Below, one piece after another: positions 1-11,749 of a stretch of 11,749 nucleotides of DNA (within the stretch, counting starts at the first letter, position 1; the number at the start of each line of letters is the position of its first letter). The position numbers and the translations under genes are program-made. This stretch comes from an uncultured archaeon (GTDB lineage: Archaea; Iainarchaeota; Iainarchaeia; Iainarchaeales; 1-14-0-10-31-34). The stretch is from assembly GCA_964608675.1 (NCBI GenBank), contig CAZSOZ010000012.1:1-11749 (forward strand), in the 5' to 3' direction. The notes under the pieces are model-generated. The model was not told the DNA's origin, searched no databases, and worked only from the letters and a program-made list of their open reading frames with translations.

Positions 1-428
1 ATTTTAATCCACCATTTAGGAGGAGCAATTGTCTGCCATGCTTTTTTTGCATTCAAAACAAATTTTTTGCTTATTTTGTTTTTTTTTACTAAAGGGCATA
101 TTTCATCTAATTTCACAGAAATTTTTTCTTTAGTATAATAAGGCACTGCAGGAAAACTTCTGCAGTCCAAAGGCCTTGCATTCCTTTTAATGCATTTGCC
201 AAATTTAAAAAAAGGACAATTTTTTTCTTCTTCCAAAATAACCCATATTTTTTTTCTGTTTATTTTATGATGGTTAGCAAAATTGTTTTTTTTTATTTTG
301 TTTTTTTTACTTAAATATTCCATTTCATTTGGAAGAAAGAGCATATGGCTTTGTTCACATATCTTGCAATTTTTTGGGCAATTCAAATTTTGGTTTACAA
401 GAGCATAAGCTTTTTCAAATTTATTCAT
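1..428 (-). CDS. YkgJ-like (CxxCxxCC / FliB-type) Zn/Fe-S cysteine-cluster protein, 3' end truncated by the window edge
   Basis: Not in the ORF track; translated by hand from ATG at 428: MNKFEKAYALVNQNLNCPKNCKICEQSHMLFLPNEMEYL...NCPFFKFGKCIKRNARPLDCRSFPAVP...ICPL...PPKWWIK, open to the edge. CPF-x-C-x-RPxxCRxFP is the YkgJ signature. It starts 4 nt after the TGA of the upstream fusion gene. Confidence 0.8.
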   Translation of the reverse strand, partial: MNKFEKAYALVNQNLNCPKNCKICEQSHMLFLPNEMEYLSKKNKIKKNNFANHHKINRKKIWVILEEEKNCPFFKFGKCIKRNARPLDCRSFPAVPYYTKEKISVKLDEICPLVKKNKISKKFVLNAKKAWQTIAPPKWWIK

Positions 429-432
429 TTTA

Positions 433-1671
433 TCATTCAACTAAATTTTCAGCAAACTTTGGCAAAACAAAAGCTGATTTATGTATTGCAGGAGAATAAT
501 ACTTTAATTTTCCTTTCAATTTTTTTTCTTTGAATTCTAATGGATTAAATTTTTTGCTTGCAAAACCAAAGCCGATTAAACCTCCGTAAGAGGGAGTTAA
601 AGTGTAATAATACTTTAAAATTGGAAAAACTTTCTTTATTTTTTTTGAGGTTTCTTTTACGAATTCTTTTAATTCAAAAAAATTTTCAAATTGGTTTATC
701 ATTATTCCTTCTGATTTAAGCGAAGCATAAACTAATTCATAAAAATTTTTTTTAAACAAATTTTTTCCTGGGCCTATTGGATCAGTGGAATCAACTATTA
801 TTATATCGTAGTAGTTTTTTTTTCTTTTAAGGAATTTGAAGCCATCTTCATTAAACACTTTTAATTTTTCATTCTTAAATCCTTCTGCTGTAAATGGAAG
901 AAATTTTTTTGCTGTTTCAATTACTTGTTTGTCTAAATCACATAAATGAATTTCTTTTACTTCTGGGTGTTTTTCTATTTCTCTTGCTGTTCCTCCGTCC
1001 CCTCCTCCTATAATCAAAACTTTTTTGGGGTTTGAATGCACATGTATTGCAGGATGCACTATCATTTCATGGTAAGTGAATTCATCTTTTTCTGTTGTTT
1101 GAATTATTCCGTCTAATACAAGCATTCTTCCGAATGCTTTTGTGTCATAAACTTCTATGTTTTGAAAAGAGCTTTTTTTGCTGTAAATTTGTTTTCCTTT
1201 CACTGCAAGAGACTGTCCTTGTTTTATTTCAAGTCTTTCAAAAAACCAGTTTCTTGGATTTGGAAGTTCTTCTTTTTTGAAAGCAGAAGGCATTTTTCTT
1301 ATAAGTAAATTGCTTTCAGTTTTTTTTGCTTCAAAGAATTTTTTTGTGAATTGTTCTGCTTTTTGGGCATCGTAATATTTGCAGGAAAAAATATCTATGT
1401 ATGCAGAATTAGTGTTTTCTGCAAAATGCCCGCTTATTAATGAAGTTTCAATTAATTGAATCATTGAATAACCTTGGACTTTTTTGTCTTGCCCAAATCT
1501 TACTGCAGTGGTTTCTCTGAATCTTTTCATTTCAATTAATTCACATAACTTTTTTGCATATTTTTTGATTTCTTTTTTTGAACGAATTTTTTTTGGATTG
1601 CATTCAAATAAATCTATGCTTGTAAGCAAACCCCATGCTTTTTCTTCTTTGAATTCATTTTTTAACTGCAT
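433..1671 (-). CDS. speE: Fusion of an N-terminal pyruvoyl-dependent S-adenosylmethionine decarboxylase-like domain (about aa 1-127) and a C-terminal spermidine synthase/aminopropyltransferase
   Basis: N-terminus has LIETSLISGHF...AYIDIFSCK (SpeD/SpeH-like Ser, His and Cys). C-terminus has KSSFQNI, GRMLVLDGIIQTTEKDEFTYHEMIVHP, VLIIGGGDGGTARE and YDIIIVDSTDPIGPG, all typical of SpeE. One uninterrupted 412-aa frame; GTGGT lies just upstream of the ATG. Confidence 0.93.
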   Translation of the reverse strand: MQLKNEFKEEKAWGLLTSIDLFECNPKKIRSKKEIKKYAKKLCELIEMKRFRETTAVRFGQDKKVQGYSMIQLIETSLISGHFAENTNSAYIDIFSCKYYDAQKAEQFTKKFFEAKKTESNLLIRKMPSAFKKEELPNPRNWFFERLEIKQGQSLAVKGKQIYSKKSSFQNIEVYDTKAFGRMLVLDGIIQTTEKDEFTYHEMIVHPAIHVHSNPKKVLIIGGGDGGTAREIEKHPEVKEIHLCDLDKQVIETAKKFLPFTAEGFKNEKLKVFNEDGFKFLKRKKNYYDIIIVDSTDPIGPGKNLFKKNFYELVYASLKSEGIMINQFENFFELKEFVKETSKKIKKVFPILKYYYTLTPSYGGLIGFGFASKKFNPLEFKEKKLKGKLKYYSPAIHKSAFVLPKFAENLVE

Positions 1672-1764
1672 TTTTTACCACAAAAAAATTTTAAAAAATA
1701 GCGGTGAATAATTATTCTTTCCTGAAAACATTTTTATTCTTTTGCTATTAATCTCTTTTTTCTC

Positions 1765-1772
1765 TTTAAAAA
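1765..1772 (+). promoter_or_regulatory. Putative archaeal TATA box for the KamA-like gene (leaderless transcript)
   Basis: TTTAAAAA lies 24-31 nt upstream of ATG 1796 and no ribosome-binding site is visible. Weak evidence, because the region is very AT-rich. Confidence 0.35.
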
Positions 1773-1795
1773 CTCTTTTTTTCTTTAGTTTTTTT

Positions 1796-2905
1796 ATGCT
1801 TTGGAAAAAAAAATTAAACCAAAATGTTTGTTCTGTTGATGAATTAAAAAAATACTTTAAGTTAACAAAAAAAGAGGAAGCGAATTTAAGAAAAGTAGTT
1901 GAAATCCATTCTATGAGCATCAGCAAATATTATCTTTCTTTGATTGACAAACAAGATAAAAAAGATCCGATTAGGAATATGGTGGTTCCTTCAAAAGATG
2001 AATTGGATTTGCATGGCACTTATGATACAAGCGGTGAAAAAAGAAGCACTAAGGCTGTTGGATTACAGCATAAATACAAGGAAACTGCATTAATTTTGTC
2101 CACTAACCGTTGTTCTTCTTACTGCAGGTTTTGTTTTAGAAAAAGGCTTGTTGGTTTATCTGATAGGGAAGTCCTTAAACGTTTTGATGAAGCAGTGAAT
2201 TACATTAAAGAGCATGAAGAAATAAATAATGTTTTGATTTCAGGAGGCGATCCTTTAATTCTGCCGACTGAAGTTTTAAGCAAGTTTTTGTTTCGTCTTT
2301 CTAAAATAAAACACTTGGATTTTATTAGAATTGGTTCAAGGGTTCCTGTTGTTTTTCCTTTTAGACTTATTGAAGACAAAAAGTTATTGAAAGTATTCAA
2401 AAAATATTCTGATAAAAAAAGAAGACTGTATGTTGTAACTCATTTTAATCATCCAAGGGAAATCACTTTTGAATCAATTCAGGGAATAAATAATTTAATT
2501 GAATCAAATGTTATTGTAAACAATCAGACTGTTTTATTGAAAGGAACAAATGATTCAGCTGAAACTTTAATTAATTTAATGAATAAACTGGTTTCAGTTG
2601 GAGTTAATCCTTATTATTTGTTTCAATGCCGTCCGGTTAAAAGAGTAAAAAATCATTTTCAGGTCCCTTTTTTTGAGGGCTGTAATACTGTTGATAATGC
2701 AAGAAAGCATTTGAATGGTCATGCAAAAAGATTCAAATATGTAATGTCTCACAATGCAGGAAAAATGGAAATTTTGGGCATTATGAATAATTTTATTTAT
2801 TTTAAGCAGCATGAAGCAAGAAAACCAGAAACAATCGGAAAAATTTTTAAAAGAAAAATAAACAGGAAATCCGGTTGGCTTGACAGTTCCCTTAAATTAT
2901 GCTGA
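1796..2905 (+). CDS. KamA-family radical SAM/PLP 2,3-aminomutase-like protein (substrate uncertain)
   Basis: Motifs GLQHKY, CSSYCRFCFRKR (CxxxCxxC), VLISGGDPL, IRIGSRVPV, THFNHPREIT, NQTVLLKGTND and PYYLFQC, with a candidate PLP lysine in HNAGK. ATG 1796 (MLWKKKL) is preferred over TTG 1742, whose extension is poly-T/Phe low complexity. Confidence 0.92.
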   Translation: MLWKKKLNQNVCSVDELKKYFKLTKKEEANLRKVVEIHSMSISKYYLSLIDKQDKKDPIRNMVVPSKDELDLHGTYDTSGEKRSTKAVGLQHKYKETALILSTNRCSSYCRFCFRKRLVGLSDREVLKRFDEAVNYIKEHEEINNVLISGGDPLILPTEVLSKFLFRLSKIKHLDFIRIGSRVPVVFPFRLIEDKKLLKVFKKYSDKKRRLYVVTHFNHPREITFESIQGINNLIESNVIVNNQTVLLKGTNDSAETLINLMNKLVSVGVNPYYLFQCRPVKRVKNHFQVPFFEGCNTVDNARKHLNGHAKRFKYVMSHNAGKMEILGIMNNFIYFKQHEARKPETIGKIFKRKINRKSGWLDSSLKLC

Positions 2906-3091: not shown

Positions 3092-3319
3092 TTAAAGCCA
3101 TTTTTTGATTTCTTCTGTTGAAGGGATTCTGCCGCTGCAAACAATTTTATCGTCAATTGCCAAAGCCGGTGTTGTCATTATTCCTGCTTCAATTATTTTG
3201 TTTATGTCTGTTACCTTTTCTATTTCTGCTTTTTTTCCTGTTTCTTCCAGTGCCTTTTTTACGTTTGCTTCAAGCTGTTTGCATTTTGGACAGCCTGTTC
3301 CAAGTACTTGTATTTTCAT
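3092..3319 (-). CDS. Small redox-active disulfide protein (thioredoxin family, MTH895-like)
   Basis: 75 aa, MKIQVLGTGCPKC...IEKVTD...GIMTTPALAID...SGRIPS; AGGAGG ribosome-binding site upstream. This family is commonly found next to arsP-type permeases. Confidence 0.92.
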   Translation of the reverse strand: MKIQVLGTGCPKCKQLEANVKKALEETGKKAEIEKVTDINKIIEAGIMTTPALAIDDKIVCSGRIPSTEEIKKWL

Positions 3320-3332
3320 TTTAATTTCCTCC

Positions 3333-4439
3333 TTAAATCATTCCAAAAATTAATCCTGCAATAGAAGAATAAATTACAACTATTGCAAGGTATACAATTG
3401 TTTTTTTGTTGCCTAGAACTTGTCTTATTACAAGCATTGCAGGTAAACTCAAAGAAGGTCCTGCTAAAAGCAATGCAAGTGCCGGCCCCTGATTCATTCC
3501 TTTTGCAATCAATGCCTGCATTATCGGCACTTCAGTCAGTGTTGAAAAATACATTAATGCACCAAAAACTGATGCCAAAAGGTTTGCTTGAATTGTGTTT
3601 GAGCCAACCCATTGAACTATTACTTCTTTTGGAATCAACGGCATTATGAATCCAACAACAAAAACTCCAATGAACAGATAGGGAATTAACAGTTTGCTTA
3701 TGCTCCATGTTTCTGAAAGCCAATTGTTTCTTGTTTTCTTGTTGAATTTTAGTAATGCAATTAGAATAGTTATTATAGCAAAAGCAATCATTAAGGTCCA
3801 TTTAATCATTGAATCAATTTGCAAACCATTCACTATGAGAATTCCAACCATTGAAGCAAAAAATATTGCCATAAAAGTTTTTGAAATTTTTTGTTTAGTT
3901 TCTTCTTTTAATGCAATTTCTTGTTTTGCGCTTTTTTCTTTAAAAATAAAAGCCATTGTCAAGCCCACCGCTCCTGCCAAAGCAACTGCTGCAACTGCTC
4001 TTGCCAATCCAATTTCAAATCCTAAAACGCTTGCAGTCAAAAAAATTGCTGCAACATTTATTGCTGGACCAGAGTAAAGGAATGCTGTTGCAGGTCCCAA
4101 GCCAGCCCCGCGCTTGTAGATTCCTGCAAATAAAGGCAGGATAGTGCAGCTGCAAACTGCGAGAACTGCACCGGAAACAGAAGCAATTGGATAAGAAATG
4201 TAAGGCTTTGCTTTTCCTCCAAGATATTTTAATACGGCTTGTTTTTTTACGAATACTGCGATTGCTCCTGCAATAAAGAATGCAGGAACAAGGCAGGTTA
4301 GAATGTGTTGTGTTGCATATTCATGCAGCAACCCAAAACCGCTTAATAATGCAGAGTCAAGCCATGCACTGCCTGCCGGCATGAAATAAAATGCCAGAAA
4401 CAATGCAACAATTATTATGAATATGTTTTTTTCTTTCAT
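3333..4439 (-). CDS. arsP: ArsP/DUF318-family permease (putative organoarsenical/metalloid efflux)
   Basis: Multi-TM protein with CLVPAFFIAGAI, LAVCSCTILPLFAGIYKRGAGLGPATAFLYSGPAIN and MYFSTLTEVP...GPALALLLAGPSLSLP; ATGA overlap with the upstream ArsR gene. Confidence 0.88.
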   Translation of the reverse strand: MKEKNIFIIIVALFLAFYFMPAGSAWLDSALLSGFGLLHEYATQHILTCLVPAFFIAGAIAVFVKKQAVLKYLGGKAKPYISYPIASVSGAVLAVCSCTILPLFAGIYKRGAGLGPATAFLYSGPAINVAAIFLTASVLGFEIGLARAVAAVALAGAVGLTMAFIFKEKSAKQEIALKEETKQKISKTFMAIFFASMVGILIVNGLQIDSMIKWTLMIAFAIITILIALLKFNKKTRNNWLSETWSISKLLIPYLFIGVFVVGFIMPLIPKEVIVQWVGSNTIQANLLASVFGALMYFSTLTEVPIMQALIAKGMNQGPALALLLAGPSLSLPAMLVIRQVLGNKKTIVYLAIVVIYSSIAGLIFGMI

Positions 4440-4750
4440 TTTTTACAGCTCCTTTTCATGCAACAGTCTTTTTTCAGCAATACATTTTTTTTGTATCCTA
4501 ATGCCTTGAAAATGTCACAGACAACAAAGTCTTTTATTTTGTAAAAAATTTTTTTGCCGTCCCTTCGTGATTCAATCAAACTTGCTTTTTCAAGCGTTGC
4601 CAATTGGATTGAAACAGTTGATTGTGTTCTCTTTACTTTTGGAAAAATTTCGCAGACACATTTTTCGCCGTCCAAAAGCAATTCAAGTATTTTCAATCTG
4701 GTTTCGTCGGCAAACGCCTTTAGTATTGAGATAGGTTTTTTTCCAACCAT
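4436..4750 (-). CDS. arsR: ArsR/SmtB-family transcriptional repressor
   Basis: LKAFADETRLKILELLLDGEKCVCEI...QSTVSIQLATL...LIESRRDGKKIFY winged HTH, with a CVC motif and a C-terminal CC. Confidence 0.92.
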   Translation of the reverse strand: MVGKKPISILKAFADETRLKILELLLDGEKCVCEIFPKVKRTQSTVSIQLATLEKASLIESRRDGKKIFYKIKDFVVCDIFKALGYKKNVLLKKDCCMKRSCKK

Positions 4751-4860: not shown

Positions 4861-5493
4861 TTATACTTGCAATTTTTTGATGTGCTCAATGTTATAGGAG
4901 TATAAAACAGGGATTCTGAATTTTTCAATCTTGTTCTGTTTTTCGTCAAGAGGGATTACTAATTCAAGATTTTCCTGAAAATCACTCCATTGAATTAGTA
5001 TTAATTCATTTATTCCTTCTTTGATTGCCAATTCTTTTGAGTCATGGAATATAATTTCGGTTGTTTCAGGAACATATTTTCTTGCGAGTTCTTCACTAAC
5101 ATAAGTGTGGATTCTGTTGTGATGTAATTCAGCAAGGCTTATAGCACGTTTTTCTTTTCCAACAAGAGTTAACCCTTCTCTTAAGGTTTTTTTGAATGCA
5201 TCTTCAATTTCGTTTTCTTTTGCAAGCCTGCCAACCAAAACAACATTTATTTCTCCGTTATTCAGTGATTGAAGTGCCTGGCTTGTAAATTCATATGCTT
5301 TAAGAGAGACATTATTGTTTTTTGATGCTATTTCTTTTGCAATTCCTGACATTGTGGGGCAGTAACCTAAAGTTATGGGTTCTTCAACTTTTGCTTCTTG
5401 CTCAATCGCGGGTTTTTGTACAAAAACAATGCCTGCAGTAACCAAAAATAATGCAACAACAGAAAGCAGTATTACAGTGTTTGTTTTATTCAT
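4861..5493 (-). CDS. Membrane-anchored or secreted hypothetical protein, possibly a type II periplasmic-binding-protein fold
   Basis: N-terminal hydrophobic helix (VILLSVVALFLVTAGIVFV). ITLGYCPTM and TSQALQSLNNGEINVVLVGR resemble PBP2-type motifs. 8-nt overlap with the upstream gene; last gene of the operon. The CDS is well supported but the fold is a guess. Confidence 0.65.
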   Translation of the reverse strand: MNKTNTVILLSVVALFLVTAGIVFVQKPAIEQEAKVEEPITLGYCPTMSGIAKEIASKNNNVSLKAYEFTSQALQSLNNGEINVVLVGRLAKENEIEDAFKKTLREGLTLVGKEKRAISLAELHHNRIHTYVSEELARKYVPETTEIIFHDSKELAIKEGINELILIQWSDFQENLELVIPLDEKQNKIEKFRIPVLYSYNIEHIKKLQV

Positions 5494-5761
5494 TTTGAAT
5501 CTTCCTTAAAGCATTGGCTAGGTCAGTGGCATCAAAACCAACCAATTTTACGTGCTTTTTTTCTATGAAACCATTAACTTTTTCAATAATGTCATTTAGA
5601 TGCGTGCCTGCAAGCAGGGCTTCAATTTCGGTTATTGCTGTTTCAGGATAAACAAAAAAATCCCCGCATATTTTTATTGAATGAACAATGTTTTTATCCA
5701 AATCTGCTTCTAATCTTATCATTTTGCCGTTTGGAACCTTGTAGTCAATGTTTTGTTTCAT
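5486..5761 (-). CDS. lplB: Lipoate-protein ligase accessory subunit (stand-alone LplA C-terminal domain, LplB)
   Basis: YKVPNGKMIR...IKICGDFFVYPETAITEIEALLAG, with the GDFFxxPE signature. ATG 5761 is preferred over 5803 because it forms an ATGA overlap with the ligase stop. Confidence 0.85.
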   Translation of the reverse strand: MKQNIDYKVPNGKMIRLEADLDKNIVHSIKICGDFFVYPETAITEIEALLAGTHLNDIIEKVNGFIEKKHVKLVGFDATDLANALRKIQNE

Positions 5762-6513
5762 TTTAGTTCCCGCCATTCTTTTGCAGAATATTTTTTCTGG
5801 CACAATTTTTCAGCTAATTTTTTTTCTTCAGCTGTGAGTTCCGATTCTTTAAATCTGACTTTAAAAGCTTCTTCAAACCCTTTTATCAGGAACCCTCTTA
5901 ATTCTTCCACAGAAACCTCTTGGCCCAACTCTTTTTTTAATGAAGACACTCTTTCTTCAGCAGTTTGAATCATTTTGTCCTTTATCTTTTCATCAGGCAC
6001 TTTTAAAAAAGAAAACATTTTTTTGATATCCACGTCAATAAGAATAGTTCCGTGCTGCAATACGATTCCCTCTTTTCTTGTTTGCGCGTTTCCGGAAACC
6101 TTTTTTCCGTTGACAACTATGTCATTTATTGGCTTAAATTCAGGATTGATATGTAAGCGCTCCAAACCCTTTGTTAGGGCAGAGCATATTTTTTGGTATG
6201 ATGCAATAATGTCTTGTGGAACATCTCTTTCAGAGACTGCCAGCGAATATGTCAGTTCTTTATCGTGAAAAACCGCGCCTCCACCGGTATATCTTCTCAC
6301 TATATCCACTCCCTGCAGTTCTGTATTTTTGACATCAACTTCTTTTTCAAGAGACTGAAAATAGCCAATGGTCAGGCACGAAGGATTCCATGTAAAAAAT
6401 CGCAGGGTGTTTGGAACACTATTCTTAATCCTAAAAGTCAGTATGGCTTCATCTATTGCCATCTGCATTGCGCCACTTGCTTCAATTGTGTTAATTAGCC
6501 GCCATGCTTTCAT
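5758..6513 (-). CDS. lplA: Lipoate-protein ligase catalytic subunit (LplA N-terminal domain)
   Basis: WRLI...QMAIDEAI, TLRFFTW, IGYFQ, VRRYTGGGAVFHD and KPINDIVVNGKKVSGNAQTR...LQHGT. The start could be 6513, 6519 or 6534; 6513 follows a GTGGT ribosome-binding-like motif. Confidence 0.92.
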   Translation of the reverse strand: MKAWRLINTIEASGAMQMAIDEAILTFRIKNSVPNTLRFFTWNPSCLTIGYFQSLEKEVDVKNTELQGVDIVRRYTGGGAVFHDKELTYSLAVSERDVPQDIIASYQKICSALTKGLERLHINPEFKPINDIVVNGKKVSGNAQTRKEGIVLQHGTILIDVDIKKMFSFLKVPDEKIKDKMIQTAEERVSSLKKELGQEVSVEELRGFLIKGFEEAFKVRFKESELTAEEKKLAEKLCQKKYSAKEWRELK

Positions 6514-7354
6514 TTTCATACCACTTCCTTGCATTATACGAGCTTCTTACTAACGAGCCTGCACTAATTTGATTGATTCCAATTTGTTTGGCTTTTTCTT
6601 CTATTTTTTTGAATTCTTCAGAAGAATAATATTTCTTTACCTTAAAATGTTTTTTGCTGGGCTGCAAATACTGTCCGATTGTCACAATGTCACAGCCCGC
6701 ACCTTTTAGATCAGACATAGTCTGGACAATCTGGTTTATTTTTTCTCCTAAACCCAGCATAAAACCAGATTTGATTTTCATGTTTGGATTGAATTCTTTT
6801 GCTTTTTTCAGCAGGATTAAAGAAACATCATAATTCCCTTCCGGCCTTAATATTGGAAATAATTCTCTTACTGTTTCAATGTTATGGTTTAATACATCCG
6901 GCTTTGCATCGATTATTTGTTTCAGCGAATTCCAGTTTCCTTTAAGGTCAGAAATCAGCACTTCAATTTTGCAGTCAGGATTTAACTTTCTGATTTCTTT
7001 TATTGTGTTAACAAATTGTCCTGCTCCTCCGTCCTGAAGGTCGTCTCTTGTAACACAAGTGATTACAGCGTATTTTAAATTCAGTTTCTTAATTGCTTTA
7101 GCGATTCTTGTTGGCTCGCCAGCATCGACTTTTCTTGGCTTACCGCTTTTGATGTTGCAGTAACGGCAGTTTCTTGTGCATGTGTCTCCAAGTATCATAA
7201 ACGTGGCAGTCTTTTTTGAAAAGCATTCATACTTGTTTGGACAGTTTGCTTCAATGCATACAGTTGTCAAATTATTTTTTTCAATCAGCTCTTTTGTTTT
7301 CACATATGCTGTTCTGTCATAATCAGGAATCTGAATATTTTTGGGAACAAGCAT
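6491..7354 (-). CDS. lipA: Lipoyl synthase (canonical LipA, radical SAM)
   Basis: Auxiliary-cluster motif CIEANCPNKYEC (CX4CX5C), radical SAM motif CTRNCRYC, plus TATFMILG, RDDLQDGGA, HNIETV, IKSGFMLGLGE, TIGQYLQPS and the C-terminal RSSY. Confidence 0.97.
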   Translation of the reverse strand: MLVPKNIQIPDYDRTAYVKTKELIEKNNLTTVCIEANCPNKYECFSKKTATFMILGDTCTRNCRYCNIKSGKPRKVDAGEPTRIAKAIKKLNLKYAVITCVTRDDLQDGGAGQFVNTIKEIRKLNPDCKIEVLISDLKGNWNSLKQIIDAKPDVLNHNIETVRELFPILRPEGNYDVSLILLKKAKEFNPNMKIKSGFMLGLGEKINQIVQTMSDLKGAGCDIVTIGQYLQPSKKHFKVKKYYSSEEFKKIEEKAKQIGINQISAGSLVRSSYNARKWYENESMAAN

Positions 7355-7356
7355 TT

Positions 7357-7632
7357 TCAGGAAAACACCTTCTCGGTTTCTATTAATTCAACAAAACCAG
7401 AATAATCAATAAGCTTGGCGCCTGCATTGTTTTGGATTCCCCGAAGCTCTAAGTCTTCTTTTAATGCCAGCACTTCGACTTTTTTTTCTTTTAGAGCCTG
7501 AATGCCTGAAGTGCTTTTATTTAGTATCAGCACTCCGTCTTGTATCAATAACACTTTGTCTTTAGAATTCAAATGCTTAATCGCGTTTGGTTCTCTTTTC
7601 AGCAAAGATTCTTTTATTATGAATAACACCAT
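7357..7632 (-). CDS. dsrH: DsrH/TusB-family sulfur relay subunit
   Basis: VLLIQDGV, ALKEDLELRGI and IDYSGFVELI. ATG 7632 is preferred because the alternative GTG at 7641 is part of the GAGGTGA ribosome-binding site. Confidence 0.88.
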   Translation of the reverse strand: MVLFIIKESLLKREPNAIKHLNSKDKVLLIQDGVLILNKSTSGIQALKEKKVEVLALKEDLELRGIQNNAGAKLIDYSGFVELIETEKVFS

Positions 7633-7642
7633 TTTTTTCACC

Positions 7643-7993
7643 TCAAAAATTAATGATTACTTCAGCTTCATCAATAAAGCCCCTGATCTCCTGCAAGGTT
7701 GCCTGCTTTACTTCAATTAAACTGTCTTTTTTAAGGTTCCTCTCAGATATGGAGTCAGCATCGGCAAATATTTTTAATCCAAACTCTTCAGCATTGCTAA
7801 ACCCTTCCTTCAAACTGGTCATTTCAAAAATTTCCGGGCGCTGGTTTTTTAAAAGACAGAATACGCCGTCGCCTGAAAAAACAAGCTTTGTCTCCAAGTC
7901 CATGCCTGCAAAAGCAATGCCTGCCCTCAATGCTTCTGCCGCAAAAACGCTTCCAAAAGAAGCCTTGTTAACTATTATTAACACTTTTTTCAT
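7643..7993 (-). CDS. dsrF: DsrF/TusC-like subunit (DsrE/F family)
   Basis: KKVLIIVNKASFGS...EALR...VFSGDGVFCLLKNQ...DSISERNL...VIINF; lies between the dsrE-like and dsrH-like genes and lacks the DsrE active-site Cys. Confidence 0.82.
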   Translation of the reverse strand: MKKVLIIVNKASFGSVFAAEALRAGIAFAGMDLETKLVFSGDGVFCLLKNQRPEIFEMTSLKEGFSNAEEFGLKIFADADSISERNLKKDSLIEVKQATLQEIRGFIDEAEVIINF

Positions 7994-8003
7994 TTTGACA
8001 CCC

Positions 8004-8348
8004 TTATATGCTCACAAATTTGTCGCATTCCTTTATTAAGTCTGCAAGCCCCGGAAGACCTTCAAGCTCTCCTTTTTCTATAAGCTGGTTTCTTTTAATT
8101 CCCCTGTATTGGACGCAGACTCCGCAAATTTTTACTTCAACACCTAATCTTGTCAATTCATCAAGCTTTCCTGCAAGGTTTCTTTCGCTTCCAGAGTTTA
8201 TTTCTTTGTTTGCTGCAATAACACTGTCAACATAAAGAAAAATCTTTACCTCATGCTTTTTTTTCAATGCTGTTTTTGCCAAATAATATGCTGTGTCTAC
8301 ATCCTGATAAGTGTATGGCGGTCTTATAAGCATCAATCCAAGTTTCAT
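8004..8348 (-). CDS. dsrE: DsrE/TusD-family sulfurtransferase subunit with a CxxC motif
   Basis: RPPY, IFLYVDSV and VKICGVCVQYRGI; GAGGTGA ribosome-binding site; ATGA overlap with the yeeE stop. Confidence 0.88.
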   Translation of the reverse strand: MKLGLMLIRPPYTYQDVDTAYYLAKTALKKKHEVKIFLYVDSVIAANKEINSGSERNLAGKLDELTRLGVEVKICGVCVQYRGIKRNQLIEKGELEGLPGLADLIKECDKFVSI

Positions 8349-9355
8349 TGTTTTTCACCTCTCATAAACATAAAATATGCTGTTGTCCATGCTCCAAGCA
8401 CAATAAATGTTCCTGCTGTGATACTGCTTACAGCTAACTGCGGAACCCCGCTTAAGATATGACCTATGTTACAGCCGTCGGCAATCACTGCGCCTAATCC
8501 AAGAAGAGTTCCTCCAAAAAGCGATTGCACGCCCATTTTTATTGGCGGCAATCTTATCTTGAACTCATTAGCTATTAATGCTGCAATAAACGCTCCCATT
8601 ATCAAGCCAATAACTTCAAAAGATTCCCATGTCAAAAAGTTTTTTCCGGCAAAAATTGATTTCACTATAGTTTCAAATCCCATTGTTATGCCTAAAGGAT
8701 AATTTCTGCCTGCAAAAGCAGAAGCAATAAAAGCAGTTATTCCTATTAACCCAATAATTATTCCTGCGCTTTTCCATGTCCATCCTGTTTTGAACCATTT
8801 TTCAAAAAAAGGCTTATTGTTTTCAATAGTTTCCTCTTTTTTTCTGAATAGAAAGTAAAATCCAATTGCTGAAAGCATAACAACAAAAATCCAGTCCGGA
8901 ACCCCTGTCAAGGATGCTAAAGTTATTTTTCCCAAATCAAATTGGTGAACAGATTCTGTAATATTTGACAAGAAACTGTCTTTAAAGAAGAAAGCAGTTA
9001 ATGCAAATGAGAATAAAGCCAGCATAGAGCTTACCATTCCTTCACCTACACGGTAGGCTGTACCGCTGGCGCAGCCTCCTGCAATTACCATTCCACTTCC
9101 AAATACAAATCCTCCAATAATGGCGCCAAGCAAGTAGACTGTTTTTGGAGCAAGGGCAATAATTCCTAGATATGAAAGGAAATGAAATCCAATCATTTGG
9201 ATAATCAATGCTAATGTTACTGCCTTCAAGAGAGTAAAATCTTTGAATACCAATGGGTCGCGGAATGCTGAATTCATGCAGAACCGCCCTCTCTGCAAAG
9301 CAAAACCAAAAATCAATCCAACAAGCAACCCACTGATAACGCCTCCTATTTCCAT
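8345..9355 (-). CDS. yeeE: YeeE/YedE-family sulfur-compound (thiosulfate-type) transporter
   Basis: Multi-TM protein with the three characteristic cysteines: QRGRFCMNSAFRD, GMVIAGGCASGT and IADGCNIGH. Confidence 0.93.
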   Translation of the reverse strand: MEIGGVISGLLVGLIFGFALQRGRFCMNSAFRDPLVFKDFTLLKAVTLALIIQMIGFHFLSYLGIIALAPKTVYLLGAIIGGFVFGSGMVIAGGCASGTAYRVGEGMVSSMLALFSFALTAFFFKDSFLSNITESVHQFDLGKITLASLTGVPDWIFVVMLSAIGFYFLFRKKEETIENNKPFFEKWFKTGWTWKSAGIIIGLIGITAFIASAFAGRNYPLGITMGFETIVKSIFAGKNFLTWESFEVIGLIMGAFIAALIANEFKIRLPPIKMGVQSLFGGTLLGLGAVIADGCNIGHILSGVPQLAVSSITAGTFIVLGAWTTAYFMFMRGEKQ

Positions 9356-9359
9356 TATT

Positions 9360-9596
9360 TCACTTCACTCTAATTAAAATTCTATGGTCTACTCCCTCTA
9401 TTTTTTCAACGGCAATGACTTTATGTCCTTCTTTTTCTGTGTTTCTGGGGATTCTTTCAAGCGATAAAGGGTAATCAGTAAGCACTTCAAGAATTTCGCC
9501 AGATTTCATTTCCTTTAATTTTTTTCTTGTTTTAATATCAGGATAAGGACAAATTTCGCCTCGCACATCAATTGTAGCATTTGGTTTTTCAGTCAT
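9360..9596 (-). CDS. tusA: TusA/YeeD/SirA-family sulfur carrier
   Basis: 78 aa, [11 protein letters not shown]...[18 protein letters not shown] (CPxP motif); GAGGTGA ribosome-binding site. Confidence 0.93.
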
Positions 9597-9607
9597 TTTG
9601 TTTCACC

Positions 9608-10048
9608 TCAGTTTAACTTGTCTCCTGGGTTTGTGCATTGGTTTTCAATGCAGTGTTTGATTTTGTCTTCTATTTCTTTTGCCAGATAGTCTGCGTAGCC
9701 GATCCAGTATTTGTCTCCGATGAAGGTTGTTGGGACTCCTTGTGCTGTTGTGCCGTAAGCTTTTGCGATTTCGTTGAATAGTTTTGCGTTTTCTGGGTTT
9801 TTCCATGTTTCAAACATTTTTATTTCTATTTCTGGATACTTTTTCTGCATTTCTTCAAGGAAAGGTTTTTCGGTAGCACAGTGCGGGCAGCCGTCACCCC
9901 AAAAAAAATAAACTGTTACTTTGCCAGGGGCATCATTGTCAGCCATGACAGCATTGCTTGTTGGCGTTGTTTGCGTATTTGAAGTGCATCCTGTTAATGC
10001 TATTGCTCCCAATATTACTAACCCTAAATACAATTGTGTATATTTCAT
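9608..10048 (-). CDS. Thioredoxin/glutaredoxin-fold lipoprotein (CPHC)
   Basis: Signal peptide ending in the lipobox LTGC (Cys21), a Thr/Ser-rich linker, VYFFWGDGCPHC, the cis-Pro motif GVPTTFIG and a C-terminal CxxxxC. Confidence 0.87.
   Translation of the reverse strand: MKYTQLYLGLVILGAIALTGCTSNTQTTPTSNAVMADNDAPGKVTVYFFWGDGCPHCATEKPFLEEMQKKYPEIEIKMFETWKNPENAKLFNEIAKAYGTTAQGVPTTFIGDKYWIGYADYLAKEIEDKIKHCIENQCTNPGDKLN
9625..9679 (+). repeat. Direct repeat copy 1 (55 nt, identical to 11695-11749)
   Basis: ctgggtttgtgcattggttttcaatgcagtgtttgattttgtcttctatttcttt occurs at both places, offset 2070 nt. Confidence 0.95.
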
Positions 10049-10440
10049 TTTATTTTCGCCTCGTATGTTTTTTTAGCTTCTGTTGAATCCAATAATTTAT
10101 CCACTTCTTTTTTATCTTTTATTTTGACTTTCATTATCCAGCTTCTGTAAGGGTCTTTATTGATTTTTGAAGGCTCGTCAAATAAAGAATCATTCACTTC
10201 TATGATTTCTCCTGAAACAGGGCTTGAAAGATGTCCTGACCATTTCACGGCCTCTAATGAAACATAGTTCTCTCCTTGCTTGATTTTTTTTCCTTTTTCC
10301 GGCAACTTAATAAATACAAATTCCTTGACTTTTTTTGCAGCAGGCTCTGTGATGCCGATGGTTGCAGTGTCTCCATCAATTTTTATCCAAGAATAATCAT
10401 TGTTGTATTTTAAATCAGCGGGTAATTTGTATTCAGTCAT
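10045..10440 (-). CDS. Glycine-cleavage-H-like lipoyl carrier protein (GcvH/LbpA-like)
   Basis: LPADLKY...SWIKIDGDTATIGIT...FIKLP...SLEAVKWSGHLSSPVSGEIIEVN...INKDPY..W, with the lipoyl-Lys in EAVK; GGAGG ribosome-binding site. Confidence 0.92.
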   Translation of the reverse strand: MTEYKLPADLKYNNDYSWIKIDGDTATIGITEPAAKKVKEFVFIKLPEKGKKIKQGENYVSLEAVKWSGHLSSPVSGEIIEVNDSLFDEPSKINKDPYRSWIMKVKIKDKKEVDKLLDSTEAKKTYEAKIK

Positions 10441-11749
10441 TTTTTTCCTCCTTGTTTTTTTTCTGAGTTATTTTTGTGACAACAATTATGGTTCCTGCAA
10501 TAATTATTGCTGTTGCCATTAACCCAAATGAAATAAATATGTTGTTGAGCAATGCAGGGTCTATTAAAAGTATTGAACCAAGGCAAAGCATCATTGTTCC
10601 TGATATCAATTTTAAAACTTTTCCTTGCCATTCAGAGAGCTTTTTGGCGCCCAAAGTAATCACAAACATTAGCACAATTATAATCAAAGGAATTACATAC
10701 ACTAAATTATATAATGCCAGATAAAGATAGTATTCTGTTGCCGGTATGTTGTTAAGGGTTAAAATTCTTGTAAAAACCATTGGAAACCCTGCAGTGCACA
10801 AAAGTTCATAGCTGTTGGCTGCAATAGCTAATACAATAGTTCCAATCATCATTGAAGTAAGAGATGTTGCTTTAAGCAAATTTCTCATTCTTTGGAACAA
10901 TTTCGGTTTTGCGCTTTCAGGGATTACTAATGAAATTCCTTTTTCAAAGAAAAAGAAATCTTTGACATTAATTAATCCTACAACTAATGCGATTACTCCT
11001 GCAATTGTTGTGACCAGCATGATTTCGCCTATTAAAAGGAAAAGATTCAACCATGCAGCCATGAACAAAAAGTACATTAAAGCAGAAACAAACACAAAAG
11101 TAAACCCAATTAAAAGCATTCTTTTTCTGCTTTTGGCATATATCAGCATGCTTAAAAGAAAAAAAAGAATAAAAAAAGCGCAGGGGTTAAAGCTATCAAG
11201 CCCTGCAATTATTATTGTAAATAACGGCAAAGGCATGTTTTCAGTGTCAATCTTGCCAAGCACAGGCAATTCAACAACAGTGCTTTCTTCAGGAGTAATG
11301 TCTTTTGGTTGAGGTGGGTAGGGAGTAAGGCCATTGATTTTACTTGCTGGGCAAACACAAGTTGTGTCCTTGCACTTGGTTATTTCTGAATCAAGATTCT
11401 CTAAAATCGCAGTTTCTCCAGCCAAAAATTTATTGCCTATAAAAACTATTGGAAATCCGGCGTCAGAAAGCGAATAGGTTTCCTTAAACTGTGAGTATGA
11501 TTTTTTTTCATTCTCATCAGAAACATCATGTATTTTTAATTCAATGTCGTGCTTGGCATTTAAAGATTCTATATAAGGGAGAACTGAACTGCACTGAGGG
11601 CAGTCTCCGATGATAAAAACATGAATGCAGGGAACTTCATTTGTAGGGATTGCAGGCGGATTATTTGTTGCGTTGTCTTTTGTCAGCATATCTTCTGGGT
11701 TTGTGCATTGGTTTTCAATGCAGTGTTTGATTTTGTCTTCTATTTCTTT
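10433..11749 (-). CDS. Membrane redox protein with N-terminal thioredoxin/glutaredoxin domain(s) and a CcdA/DsbD-like transmembrane domain; 5' end outside the window
   Basis: CPQC...GFPIVFIG domain followed by roughly 7-8 TM helices containing DSFNPCAFF and YELLCTAGFP. The frame stays open upstream of ATG 11689 to the edge (KEIEDKIKHCIENQCTNPED), so 11689 is probably not the true start. Confidence 0.85.
   Translation of the reverse strand, partial: KEIEDKIKHCIENQCTNPEDMLTKDNATNNPPAIPTNEVPCIHVFIIGDCPQCSSVLPYIESLNAKHDIELKIHDVSDENEKKSYSQFKETYSLSDAGFPIVFIGNKFLAGETAILENLDSEITKCKDTTCVCPASKINGLTPYPPQPKDITPEESTVVELPVLGKIDTENMPLPLFTIIIAGLDSFNPCAFFILFFLLSMLIYAKSRKRMLLIGFTFVFVSALMYFLFMAAWLNLFLLIGEIMLVTTIAGVIALVVGLINVKDFFFFEKGISLVIPESAKPKLFQRMRNLLKATSLTSMMIGTIVLAIAANSYELLCTAGFPMVFTRILTLNNIPATEYYLYLALYNLVYVIPLIIIVLMFVITLGAKKLSEWQGKVLKLISGTMMLCLGSILLIDPALLNNIFISFGLMATAIIIAGTIIVVTKITQKKNKEEKND
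11695..11749 (+). repeat. Direct repeat copy 2 (runs off the window edge)
   Basis: Exact match to 9625-9679; 58 of 59 nt match when extended to 11691/9621. Confidence 0.95.

Follow-up and report, generated by a model that had tools for sequence, protein, structure and literature searches.

What does an archaeon need lipoate for when none of the enzymes that classically use it can be detected in its genome? To our knowledge, the established roles of this cofactor are few, namely in 2-oxoacid dehydrogenases, in glycine cleavage and, since 2018, in sHdr sulfur oxidation (the sHdr-LbpA system, reportedly described by Cao in that year). The question is raised by a stretch of DNA of 11,749 bp from an uncultured archaeon (hereafter, the window), which is the entire contig C12 of an assembly of 1.2 Mb and 53 contigs, estimated to be ~94% complete, and which carries an operon encoding a GcvH-type lipoyl carrier, the enzymes to lipoylate it, thioredoxins on the outer side of a membrane protein, and a sulfur import and relay system. 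An organism without a detectable classical lipoate enzyme is therefore keeping carrier, synthase and ligase in one operon, and the location of its sole lipoyl protein, with its own cofactor enzymes, beside a membrane thioredoxin and a thiosulfate relay points to an undescribed use of lipoate. We give roughly even chances to the proposal that these genes encode a transmembrane thiol/disulfide relay with protein-bound lipoate as its cytoplasmic partner, in which imported sulfane sulfur or thiosulfate here takes the place of NAD(P)(H). Family calls come from Pfam and NCBIfam profile searches, related loci were gathered through searches with YeeE, DsrE, GcvH and the membrane protein, and the labels G, L and C stand for genomes (G000 being the host), gene loci and contigs, respectively.

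The operon consists of twelve open reading frames (ORFs), all on the minus strand within 4861-11749, whose neighbours overlap by 4-46 nt or stand 1-11 nt apart, and which follow each other, from 5' to 3', in the order tandem thioredoxin (Trx)/membrane protein, GcvH, Trx lipoprotein, TusA, YeeE, DsrE, DsrF, DsrH, LipA, LplA, LplB and an anchored protein of no assigned family. The original prediction, a note made from the letters of the window alone, had given this order with overlaps or gaps of at most 11 nt, and the ORFs, the coordinates and the family profiles all agree with it. The second gene (10045-10440, minus strand) encodes the lipoyl carrier, a protein of 131 aa with no Cys (PF01597, 127.7 bits) that passes the GcvH models PRK01202 (138.5 bits, cut-off 117) and TIGR00527 (115.9 bits, cut-off 115.85) and that has its lipoyl-lysine, K66, in an invariant E-x-x-K-W-x-G motif (K66, W67 and G69 are invariant). 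The lipoyl synthase (6491-7354, minus strand, 287 aa) is a canonical LipA, as had been claimed: it scores above the cut-offs of PRK05481 (392 bits) and TIGR00510 (348.2 bits, cut-off 310.25), contains C33-x4-C38-x5-C44, C59-x3-C63-x2-C66 and RSSY, and reaches only 19.2 and 33.3 bits with LipS1 and LipS2, whose cut-offs are 230 and 270. The two genes that follow make up a split lipoate-protein ligase: a catalytic subunit, LplA (5758-6534, minus strand, 258 aa; PF21948, 181.1 bits), which remains under the cut-off of the large-subunit model NF053750 (214.6 bits, cut-off 480), and a separate accessory C-terminal domain, LplB (5486-5803, minus strand, 105 aa; PF10437, 27.6 bits), which passes NF053749 (69.8 bits, cut-off 65). 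Between the carrier and the sulfur genes lies a thioredoxin-fold lipoprotein (9608-10048, minus strand, 146 aa) with weak matches to several families of that fold, a lipobox LTGC at C21 and the active site CPHC at C54/C57; it is a paralogue of the Trx1 domain of the first gene.

Which proteins could this carrier serve? No other lipoyl domain was found in the host genome (the carrier is the sole PF00364 match), and the search of that genome for the usual partners, proposed in the original prediction, gave no match to GcvT (PF01571), to Pyr_redox_dim (PF02852, i.e., the Lpd/CoA-disulfide reductase (CoADR) class), to a CCG/HdrB-type domain, to DsrC/TusE (PF04358) or to a rhodanese, and only a sub-threshold match to GcvP (PF02347, 18.1 bits). 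The nearest thing to an E2 component is a fragment: an open-ended ORF of 179 aa (C40, 801-1337, minus strand) that resembles 2-oxoacid dehydrogenase acyltransferases in their catalytic domain (31.7 bits), on a contig of 1.3 kb with a G+C of 0.34, where an ORF of 166 aa follows it and no lipoyl domain is seen. The other larger ORFs of the window do not include any sHdr, Dsr, Gcv or 2-oxoacid-dehydrogenase gene, as the earlier note had stated, nor is there any shdr or gcv gene just upstream, where both the adjoining contig (C14) and a related genome have a gene for a membrane-anchored winged-helix protein. Elsewhere, the host encodes a thioredoxin-reductase-like protein, two cysteine desulfurases and a PP-loop ORF with a weak, 23-bit match to the MnmA family. 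The same families were searched for in the six genomes that carry the sulfur variant of the operon (the host and five other carriers; four genomes bear the labels of one co-assembly, and completeness estimates exist for two of the six): DsrC/TusE appears in none of the six, CCG in one and Pyr_redox_dim in one (G199), there beside a second LplA gene. At this last locus (L208, G199:C15:22335-25649) the Pyr_redox_dim flavoprotein stands next to an LplA homologue 51% identical to that of the window, and it may be a second lipoate locus.

The first gene of the operon encodes the membrane protein. Only its 3' 438 codons lie in the window (10433-11689, minus strand, with the reading frame still open at 11749), since it is broken by the end of the contig, and its 5' part is on contig C14. 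The break was likely caused by a repeat, as the last 59 nt of the window (11691-11749), where the Trx1-coding stretch of the gene ends, are 98% identical to 9621-9679, at the 3' end of the gene for the Trx lipoprotein. That the gene continues on C14 follows from an overlap of ends (the end of C14 shares 55 identical nt with 9868-9922 and then diverges into a signal peptide) and from public contigs that join both sides: in run X3, 11122-11694 runs directly into a 9625-9922-like sequence (joint 11694 to 9625), and in run X2 the sequence continues from 9922 into that of C14. The full protein comprises a signal peptide, Trx1 (CPHC), Trx2 (CPQC, C30/C33 in the 418-aa numbering used here) and a membrane domain of seven helices, and intact orthologues with a signal peptide, Trx1 (CPHC), Trx2 (CxxC) and the membrane domain are found in G021 (557 aa, 92% identical over the shared part) and in L004, from a Pacearchaeota metagenome-assembled genome (MAG; 570 aa). 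Within the membrane domain, the invariant residues are D165-x-x-N168-P169-C170 and C298-T299; C170 (in NPC) and C298 are conserved without exception in alignments of 43 and of 21 sequences, and the residue before C298 is L in the window protein and P in the sister subfamily. AlphaFold (AF2) models, with a pLDDT of 82.9 for the full protein and 77.5 for the domain alone, predict a thioredoxin fold followed by the seven helices, with both C170 and C298 at helix breaks. The domain, which has no Pfam or NCBIfam family of its own, belongs to a large group of more than 3,880 homologues (E<=0.001), often ~70% identical over the membrane part.

The lipoyl carrier and this membrane protein are regularly encoded side by side. 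In eleven of the thirteen loci with a GcvH of 50% identity or more (L096-L107 and L005), the membrane-Trx gene is directly upstream; another begins with GcvH itself and therefore shows no upstream side, and the last has no membrane-Trx gene. The pairing is also found in G021, L016, L018 and L019. In some lineages there are hints of a link between the membrane family and quinone-dependent disulfide formation, given that one homologue (P0006, 722 aa) has a VKOR domain (PF07884) ahead of its glutaredoxin-like domain. The genes next to the membrane protein in Geobacter (TerC, RecG and CarB) are uninformative.

The sulfur genes, from TusA to DsrH, occupy the middle of the operon. YeeE (8345-9355, minus strand, 336 aa; PF04143, 278 bits) is a sulfur (thiosulfate) transporter of the YeeE/TsuA type, which aligns with the S. 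thermophila transporter 6LEO (E 9.4e-67) in all three Cys motifs (C26, C95 and C295), the functional role of these cysteines being treated in PMC11582611, as far as the part of that source available goes; it is under the TsuA equivalog cut-off of NCBIfam (309.5 versus 400). The TusA-family carrier of the YeeD/TsuB type (9360-9596, minus strand, 78 aa; PF01206, 81.8 bits) has a single Cys, Cys16, in a CPYP motif, which is in register with the CPxP Cys of YeeD in the S. thermophila YeeE-YeeD fusion 8J4C (E 1.5e-13), and it is likewise under the equivalog cut-offs (YedF, 72.6 versus 79; TsuB, 28.8 versus 147.5). Three subunits of the DsrEFH/TusBCD kind follow, all on the minus strand: a DsrE/TusD-like protein (8004-8348, 114 aa; PF02635, 78.8 bits), whose C75 occupies the alignment position of the active-site Cys in A. 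vinosum DsrE (2HY5_A), a DsrF/TusC-like protein with one Cys (7643-7993, 116 aa; PF02635, 65.9 bits) and a DsrH/TusB-like protein with no Cys (7357-7641, 94 aa; PF04077, 71 bits). The equivalog cut-off is reached only by DsrH (TIGR03011, 71.3 bits, above 49.2), as DsrE (TIGR03012, 52.9 bits, cut-off 89.25) and DsrF (TIGR03010, 60.9 bits, cut-off 94.15) are under theirs. This part of the operon has been published as a type of cluster, called YTD cluster or DsrEFH type II (yeeE-tusA-dsrE(FH)), which according to its description is found in 985 genomes of 20 phyla, normally serves DsrC through the path TusA to DsrEFH to DsrC, and in 73.9% of its carriers accompanies reductive dsrAB (PMC13293266).

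How constant is this set of genes? The earlier note asked whether it is conserved together in other genomes, and it is. In G021, of the same order and a different family, the operon order is kept through LipA, with proteins 85-96% identical (85% for the Trx lipoprotein); the order of the window recurs in L016, from an uncultured archaeon, and in L018, from a MAG labelled Saccharibacteria; in L019 (labelled Pseudomonadales) the set is rearranged into two clusters, and in L017 and L206 it is present in part, at contig ends. Together these are six further small genomes, whose labels name archaea, Saccharibacteria and Gammaproteobacteria. The genomes with the sulfur variant measure 0.8-1.6 Mb. That of L019 (G198, labelled 'uncultured Pseudomonadales bacterium') has ~0.8 Mb, including a contig of 725 kb, and its taxonomic label is doubtful.

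The claim of a single self-contained module, by contrast, has to be given up in favour of a widespread core with an exchangeable insert. The core, present in ~16 loci, consists of the membrane thioredoxin, GcvH, LipA, LplA/B, the anchored protein and ArsR/ArsP/Trx. In the clustering of neighbour genes, which covers 17 related loci, GcvH is present in 17, the membrane Trx in 16, LipA and LplA in 11 each, the membrane winged-helix protein in nine, LplB and the anchored protein in eight each, the flavoprotein in seven, ArsR in six, ArsP in five (plus L206), and DUF169, Thioredoxin_3 and DsrE/F/H in four each. In the window, in G021, in L016 and in L018 the sulfur relay is inserted with GcvH/Trx on one side and LipA on the other, and L017 and L206 show part of this arrangement. 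In seven sister loci (L096, L097, L098, L100, L103, L105 and L107) the same slot is occupied by a pyridine-nucleotide disulfide oxidoreductase of 420-450 aa with a single active-site Cys (SPCALPY), which comes closest to CoADR (310 bits, under the equivalog cut-off); none of the five sulfur-relay loci searched for this flavoprotein (L015-L019) has it, and there is no match to it in the host genome. TusA-YeeE-DsrEFH and a CoADR-like flavoprotein therefore alternate in one slot. The protein DUF169 (PF02596) adds a third alternative to the companions of the lipoyl carrier: its gene is directly after GcvH in three of the four loci that have it (L004, 11641-12423, plus strand; L019, 18285-19052, plus strand; L104 and L107), and in the fourth it adjoins the membrane-protein gene, on the opposite strand.

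Starting from the observed gene identities and catalytic residues, the conserved pairing, the alternation in the slot and the failure to find either classical lipoate enzymes or the usual acceptor of DsrEFH, the following scheme can be proposed. GcvH would be lipoylated by the LipA and the split LplA/LplB of its own operon, and its protein-bound lipoate would be the cytoplasmic dithiol/disulfide partner of the C170/C298 pair, that is, it would stand in for the thioredoxin of DsbD/CcdA systems and allow redox equivalents to be exchanged between the cytoplasm and the thioredoxins at the surface, among them the additional Trx lipoprotein. That a lipoyl domain can reduce a CxxC protein is known from the Lpd-DlaT-AhpD-AhpC system of M. 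tuberculosis. In the sister loci the lipoyl arm would exchange with NAD(P)(H) via the CoADR-like flavoprotein. Here, YeeE (TsuA) and the YeeD/TsuB-like TusA would bring in thiosulfate or sulfane sulfur and pass it on to DsrEFH, whose terminal partner might be the lipoyl arm (DsrE-S-SH + Lip(SH)2 -> DsrE-SH + H2S + Lip(S-S)); this partner is proposed because DsrC/TusE was not found in the carriers and because the relay occupies the slot of the flavoprotein. There is a chemical parallel in rhodanese-type sulfane transfer, where passage from thiosulfate to dihydrolipoate releases sulfide and oxidised lipoate. Electrons would run from surface thiols through Trx1/Trx2, the membrane Cys pair and the lipoyl arm to sulfane sulfur, or in reverse with sulfide as donor, and the path between surface thiols and imported sulfur is the only one that closes within the operon. 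With inward flow, sulfur would be an electron sink and H2S also an assimilable product. We lean slightly towards this direction, because it is favoured by DsbA-like features, namely the CPHC sites and, in Trx1, a Val preceding the cis-Pro; what disfavours it is the low potential of lipoate. A further-reaching form of the proposal is that in ultra-small archaea and bacteria without quinones or classical lipoate enzymes, a lipoylated H-protein couples the oxidation of surface thiols (standing in for DsbB/VKOR without any quinone) to the reduction of sulfur delivered by YeeE-TusA-DsrEFH, with a lipoyl acceptor replacing DsrC; in this full form we consider it unlikely.

Several points weigh against the scheme, beginning with the membrane protein. 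The earlier note called it CcdA/DsbD-like, and neither the window protein nor the full-length L004 orthologue gives a match to PF02683 (DsbD_TM/CcdA) even at E<=10, and PF02683 has no match anywhere in the host genome; profile comparison (hhalign) gives a weak match (probability 1.7%, E 0.03) to an alignment of twelve CcdA-like sequences, with both Cys columns in register, and the solved CcdA structure 5VKV comes at rank 32 (Z 6.5, rmsd 5.1, 173 of 224 residues), within the range of the helical background. The top structure matches of the membrane-only model are unrelated transporters (Z 8.6), the wide structure search with the full model gives thioredoxin-fold matches (Z 9-11), Foldseek against the PDB returns nothing at E<=0.001 for either model (only thioredoxin/glutaredoxin domains for the full one), and the profile of the membrane domain has no match at E<=10 among PDB sequences. 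What stands of the claim is reached through an intermediate: a protein of a related genome (L197), which passes PF02683 (37.4 bits, cut-off 27.1) and PF11139 (50.8 bits), is 29% identical to the membrane domain over 252 aa in BLASTP (E 1e-14), with both Cys in register. For SfLAP/Sap (PF11139, cut-off 35 bits) the window protein has no match, the sister-locus orthologues give 19 and 18 bits, and the paralogue of gene 1 in G021 gives 33.5 bits. Because the domain fails the DsbD_TM model, the profile comparison is weak and the CcdA structure ranks 32nd, "CcdA-like" is acceptable only as a likeness at the level of the DsbD/SfLAP superfamily. A predicted complex of the membrane domain with GcvH, from a run without controls, scores 0.01 and speaks neither for nor against the pairing. 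For the idea in the earlier note that thioredoxins at the surface would mobilise external sulfur for YeeE, no support emerged. As to energetics, lipoate has a potential of ~-0.29 V, and inward flow from a CPHC, DsbA-like thioredoxin would be uphill for ordinary substrates. The thioredoxin-reductase-like protein of the host could also reduce the lipoyl arm or the membrane protein independently, the related genomes, as their co-assembly labels indicate, are not independent samples, and we infer every transfer step, the coupling of the lipoyl arm to both partners, and the direction.

A rival explanation builds on the separate occurrence of relay and core: one mobile island may bear two independent functions, a YTD-type sulfur uptake and relay for assimilation or thiolation and a lipoyl envelope thiol relay, with no direct exchange between DsrEFH and the lipoyl arm. 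We think this possible, if somewhat improbable. It is true that both parts occur separately: among the 80 YeeE loci, TusA is present in 79, DsrE in 19, DsrF in 13 and DsrH in nine, LipA/LplA are present in only three, and TusA-YeeE-DsrE(F/H) appears without LipA or LplA in 15; conversely, the relay is missing from all twelve of L096-L107, which have the core. Asgard and Bathyarchaeia loci have the relay without adjacent LipA/LplA, with a GcvH-like gene within a few kb in three, and the two parts in L019 are separated by opposite-strand ABC-transporter genes. The cysteine desulfurases and the PP-loop ORF of the host could, in addition, be what the sulfur carriers serve. On the other hand, at least four genomes have the relay within the operon, at one and the same position and with no gap wider than 11 nt, the relay cluster of L019 has its own LipA-LplA-LplB, DsrC/TusE was found in none of the six carriers, and relay and flavoprotein were never found together in the loci examined. 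A different cargo is also conceivable, and in our view distinctly less probable, namely that the locus provides thiol-based defence against arsenic, other thiophilic metalloids or reactive sulfur, in which the lipoyl dithiol would chelate or reduce and the membrane protein and ArsP would move thiol-bound cargo instead of electrons. This would account for the triad directly downstream (ArsR with its CVC pair, ArsP_1 permease, Thioredoxin_3), which also accompanies the core in L016, L019, L096, L097, L101 and L206, and for L006, where the membrane protein stands with ArsR, Trx3 and ArsP and without GcvH; the DsbD/SfLAP relatives, moreover, belong to a superfamily rich in transporters. Yet family calls (Pfam) reveal no arsenate reductase, ArsB/Acr3 or ArsM in the window, the tandem exported thioredoxins and the Cys pair at helix breaks look more like parts of an electron relay than of a carrier, and both the thiosulfate importer and the flavoprotein alternative would be left unexplained.

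The two remaining explanations appeal to known pathways, and both seem very improbable to us. If the operon were part of sHdr-LbpA dissimilatory sulfur oxidation, with the sHdr genes elsewhere or unassembled, its contents would be no surprise, as TusA, DsrE-type proteins, a YeeE-family importer, a GcvH-like lipoate-binding protein, a lipoyl synthase and a split ligase are encoded together as the accessory genes of sHdr systems, whose relay is of the TusA/DsrE3/rhodanese kind and whose importers are of the SoxT/YeeE kind, and associations of TusA, DsrE and lipoate-binding proteins are known in those systems, as described by Tanabe 2024 (PMC11094781, for all of this) and Li 2024 (PMC11582611, for the set). 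Unlike sHdr loci, though, the present one comes with a canonical LipA instead of LipS1/LipS2 and with heterotrimer-type DsrE, DsrF and DsrH instead of DsrE3, and has a two-Cys membrane protein and exported thioredoxins in addition; CCG/HdrB was found neither in the host nor in four of the five other carriers, and the genomes are as small as stated. Alternatively, GcvH might be an ordinary one (for glycine cleavage or as a lipoyl relay of a 2-oxoacid dehydrogenase), or DsrEFH might act as TusBCD in tRNA 2-thiolation, the neighbourhood being coincidental. The GcvH models passed by the carrier, the acyltransferase-like fragment on C40 and the PP-loop match to MnmA speak for this; the lack in the host genome of GcvT, of GcvP above the cut-off, of Lpd, of a second lipoyl domain and of TusE, together with the conservation of the neighbourhood across domains of life, speaks against it.

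Taken one by one, all the component families are known; their wiring is not. With DsbD, CcdA and ScsB the membrane protein has in common the exported thioredoxin folds fused or linked to a polytopic domain, two essential-looking intramembrane Cys next to prolines and a 3+3-helix repeat, besides a probable homology seen by way of the intermediate that passes PF02683; it differs in failing the DsbD_TM model, in having seven helices and the signature DxxNPC / (L/P)CTAGFP, and in that its gene-linked cytoplasmic partner is a GcvH expected to be lipoylated, with LipA and LplAB, and not a thioredoxin. The lipoyl carriers known as redox dithiols for CxxC proteins or in stress defence (that of Lpd-DlaT-AhpD-AhpC in M. 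tuberculosis and GcvH-L in S. aureus) are cytoplasmic and recharged by Lpd/NADH or linked to a sirtuin/macrodomain, whereas here no Lpd-type protein was found in the host and the partners would be a membrane relay and a sulfur relay. GcvH-L reportedly has a role in oxidative-stress resistance (PMC12440151). The likeness to the YTD clusters of sulfate reducers, disproportionators and cable bacteria (PMC13293266, to the extent that its text could be consulted) lies in the yeeE-tusA-dsrEFH synteny, on which the comparison with type II rests, and in the active-site Cys of DsrE; what is different is the lack of DsrC/TusE in the six carriers and the embedding of the relay in a lipoylation operon. 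Similarly, adjacent genes and functional cysteines are shared with YeeE(TsuA)-YeeD(TsuB) thiosulfate uptake (6LEO, 8J4C; Ikei 2024, PMC11073785, again as far as accessible), from which the window departs in missing the TsuA/TsuB cut-offs and in the partners, DsrEFH and lipoate genes instead of those for cysteine synthesis. The original prediction did not recognise the combination as a described system, and this has to be divided: the yeeE-tusA-dsrE(FH) part is published, and for the pairing with a lipoyl carrier the literature search found no paper, neither joining such a carrier to a DsbD-like membrane protein nor ending a DsrEFH relay on lipoate without sHdr, although supplements or subscription journals may hold one. 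Should the lipoyl arm indeed link the Cys relay to NAD(P)H or to sulfane sulfur, depending on the lineage, this would be a new physiological function for lipoate, a role for a large unnamed family of thioredoxin-fused two-cysteine membrane proteins and a new acceptor for DsrEFH-type relays, with a bearing on envelope thiol redox and sulfur supply in episymbiotic microbes without respiratory chains. Since the parts are small and soluble, or expressible in E. coli, the question is directly testable.

The operon is also an accessory, horizontally exchanged island, made of the conserved core and a variant-specific insert, and it has been exchanged among genomes labelled as DPANN archaea, Saccharibacteria and other tiny-genome bacteria. 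A search of 196 genomes of the order for YeeE finds it in the host and G021 only, besides one 17-bit match at chance level, and none of the five same-genus genomes has it. The left 3 kb of the window have a G+C of 0.27-0.30, as the host genome, and the operon one of 0.33-0.40; in G021 the operon is at the end of a 91-kb contig, with 0.40-0.43 against ~0.50 beside it. On the native side of the island lie a fusion of an S-adenosylmethionine decarboxylase domain with a spermidine synthase (433-1671, minus strand, 412 aa; PF02675, PF17284 and PF01564), kept in three of the five same-genus genomes at 66-67% identity, a KamA-like radical SAM protein (1742-2905, plus strand) that matches PF04055 only, and a putative Fe/Zn protein of the CxxCxxCC type (3-440, minus strand). 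Same-genus genomes have counterparts of the first two products at 65-69% identity, with no island beside them; in G014 the KamA gene adjoins the spermidine synthase gene in a relative orientation that differs from that of the window. A mis-binned contig was considered and rejected, as the left 3 kb have the G+C of the genome and genes 65-69% identical to those of same-genus genomes. Elsewhere in the assembly, ~35 short contigs (C10 and C16-C52) have a G+C of 0.39-0.68, versus 0.29-0.32 in the main contigs, and are probably foreign DNA contaminating the bin. The records that contain this DNA are labelled as microbial-mat and hot-spring metagenomes, from two studies, and no RNA record is listed for the operon.

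As to the extent of the operon, the twelve genes proposed are there, with the qualifications that the first is broken by the contig end and that three more same-strand genes follow. These encode an ArsR-family repressor (4436-4750, minus strand, 104 aa; PF01022, 53.7 bits), 110 nt downstream of the operon, with the CVC pair (C31/C33) and a Cys-rich tail, the ArsP_1-family permease (3333-4439, minus strand, 368 aa; PF03773, 276.2 bits) and the Thioredoxin_3 protein with a CPKC site (3092-3319, minus strand, 75 aa; PF13192, 105.5 bits). They are part of the conserved neighbourhood, as is the winged-helix gene upstream of gene 1, whose membrane-anchored product has 178 aa (on C14 and in G021). 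The last gene of the operon proper (4861-5493, minus strand) encodes a membrane-anchored extracytoplasmic protein of 210 aa with no match in Pfam or NCBIfam, whose orthologues are lipoproteins and which has an invariant C45-P-T-M in an alignment of eight members. Weak signals lead to periplasmic binding proteins: the Atlas leads to such families are all below 0.9, two of the eight orthologues match PBP_like_2 (E 0.033), and the profile finds an ancestral amino-acid-binding protein in the PDB (E 0.013). Between the ArsP permease and the anchored protein, L016, L096, L097 (2961-3677, minus strand) and L101 have a bona fide DsbD_2/DsbD_TM membrane protein (72 and 37 bits), which is not present in this window. 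Gene 1 itself has a distant paralogue in the host, ~25% identical (C5, 39411-40520, plus strand), with a signal peptide, a Trx domain (SCPHC) and a membrane domain that has the motifs VNPC and TPCTAGP, and with no lipoate genes nearby; a similar paralogue is found in G021, 2.5 kb upstream of the operon (L015:7721-8983).

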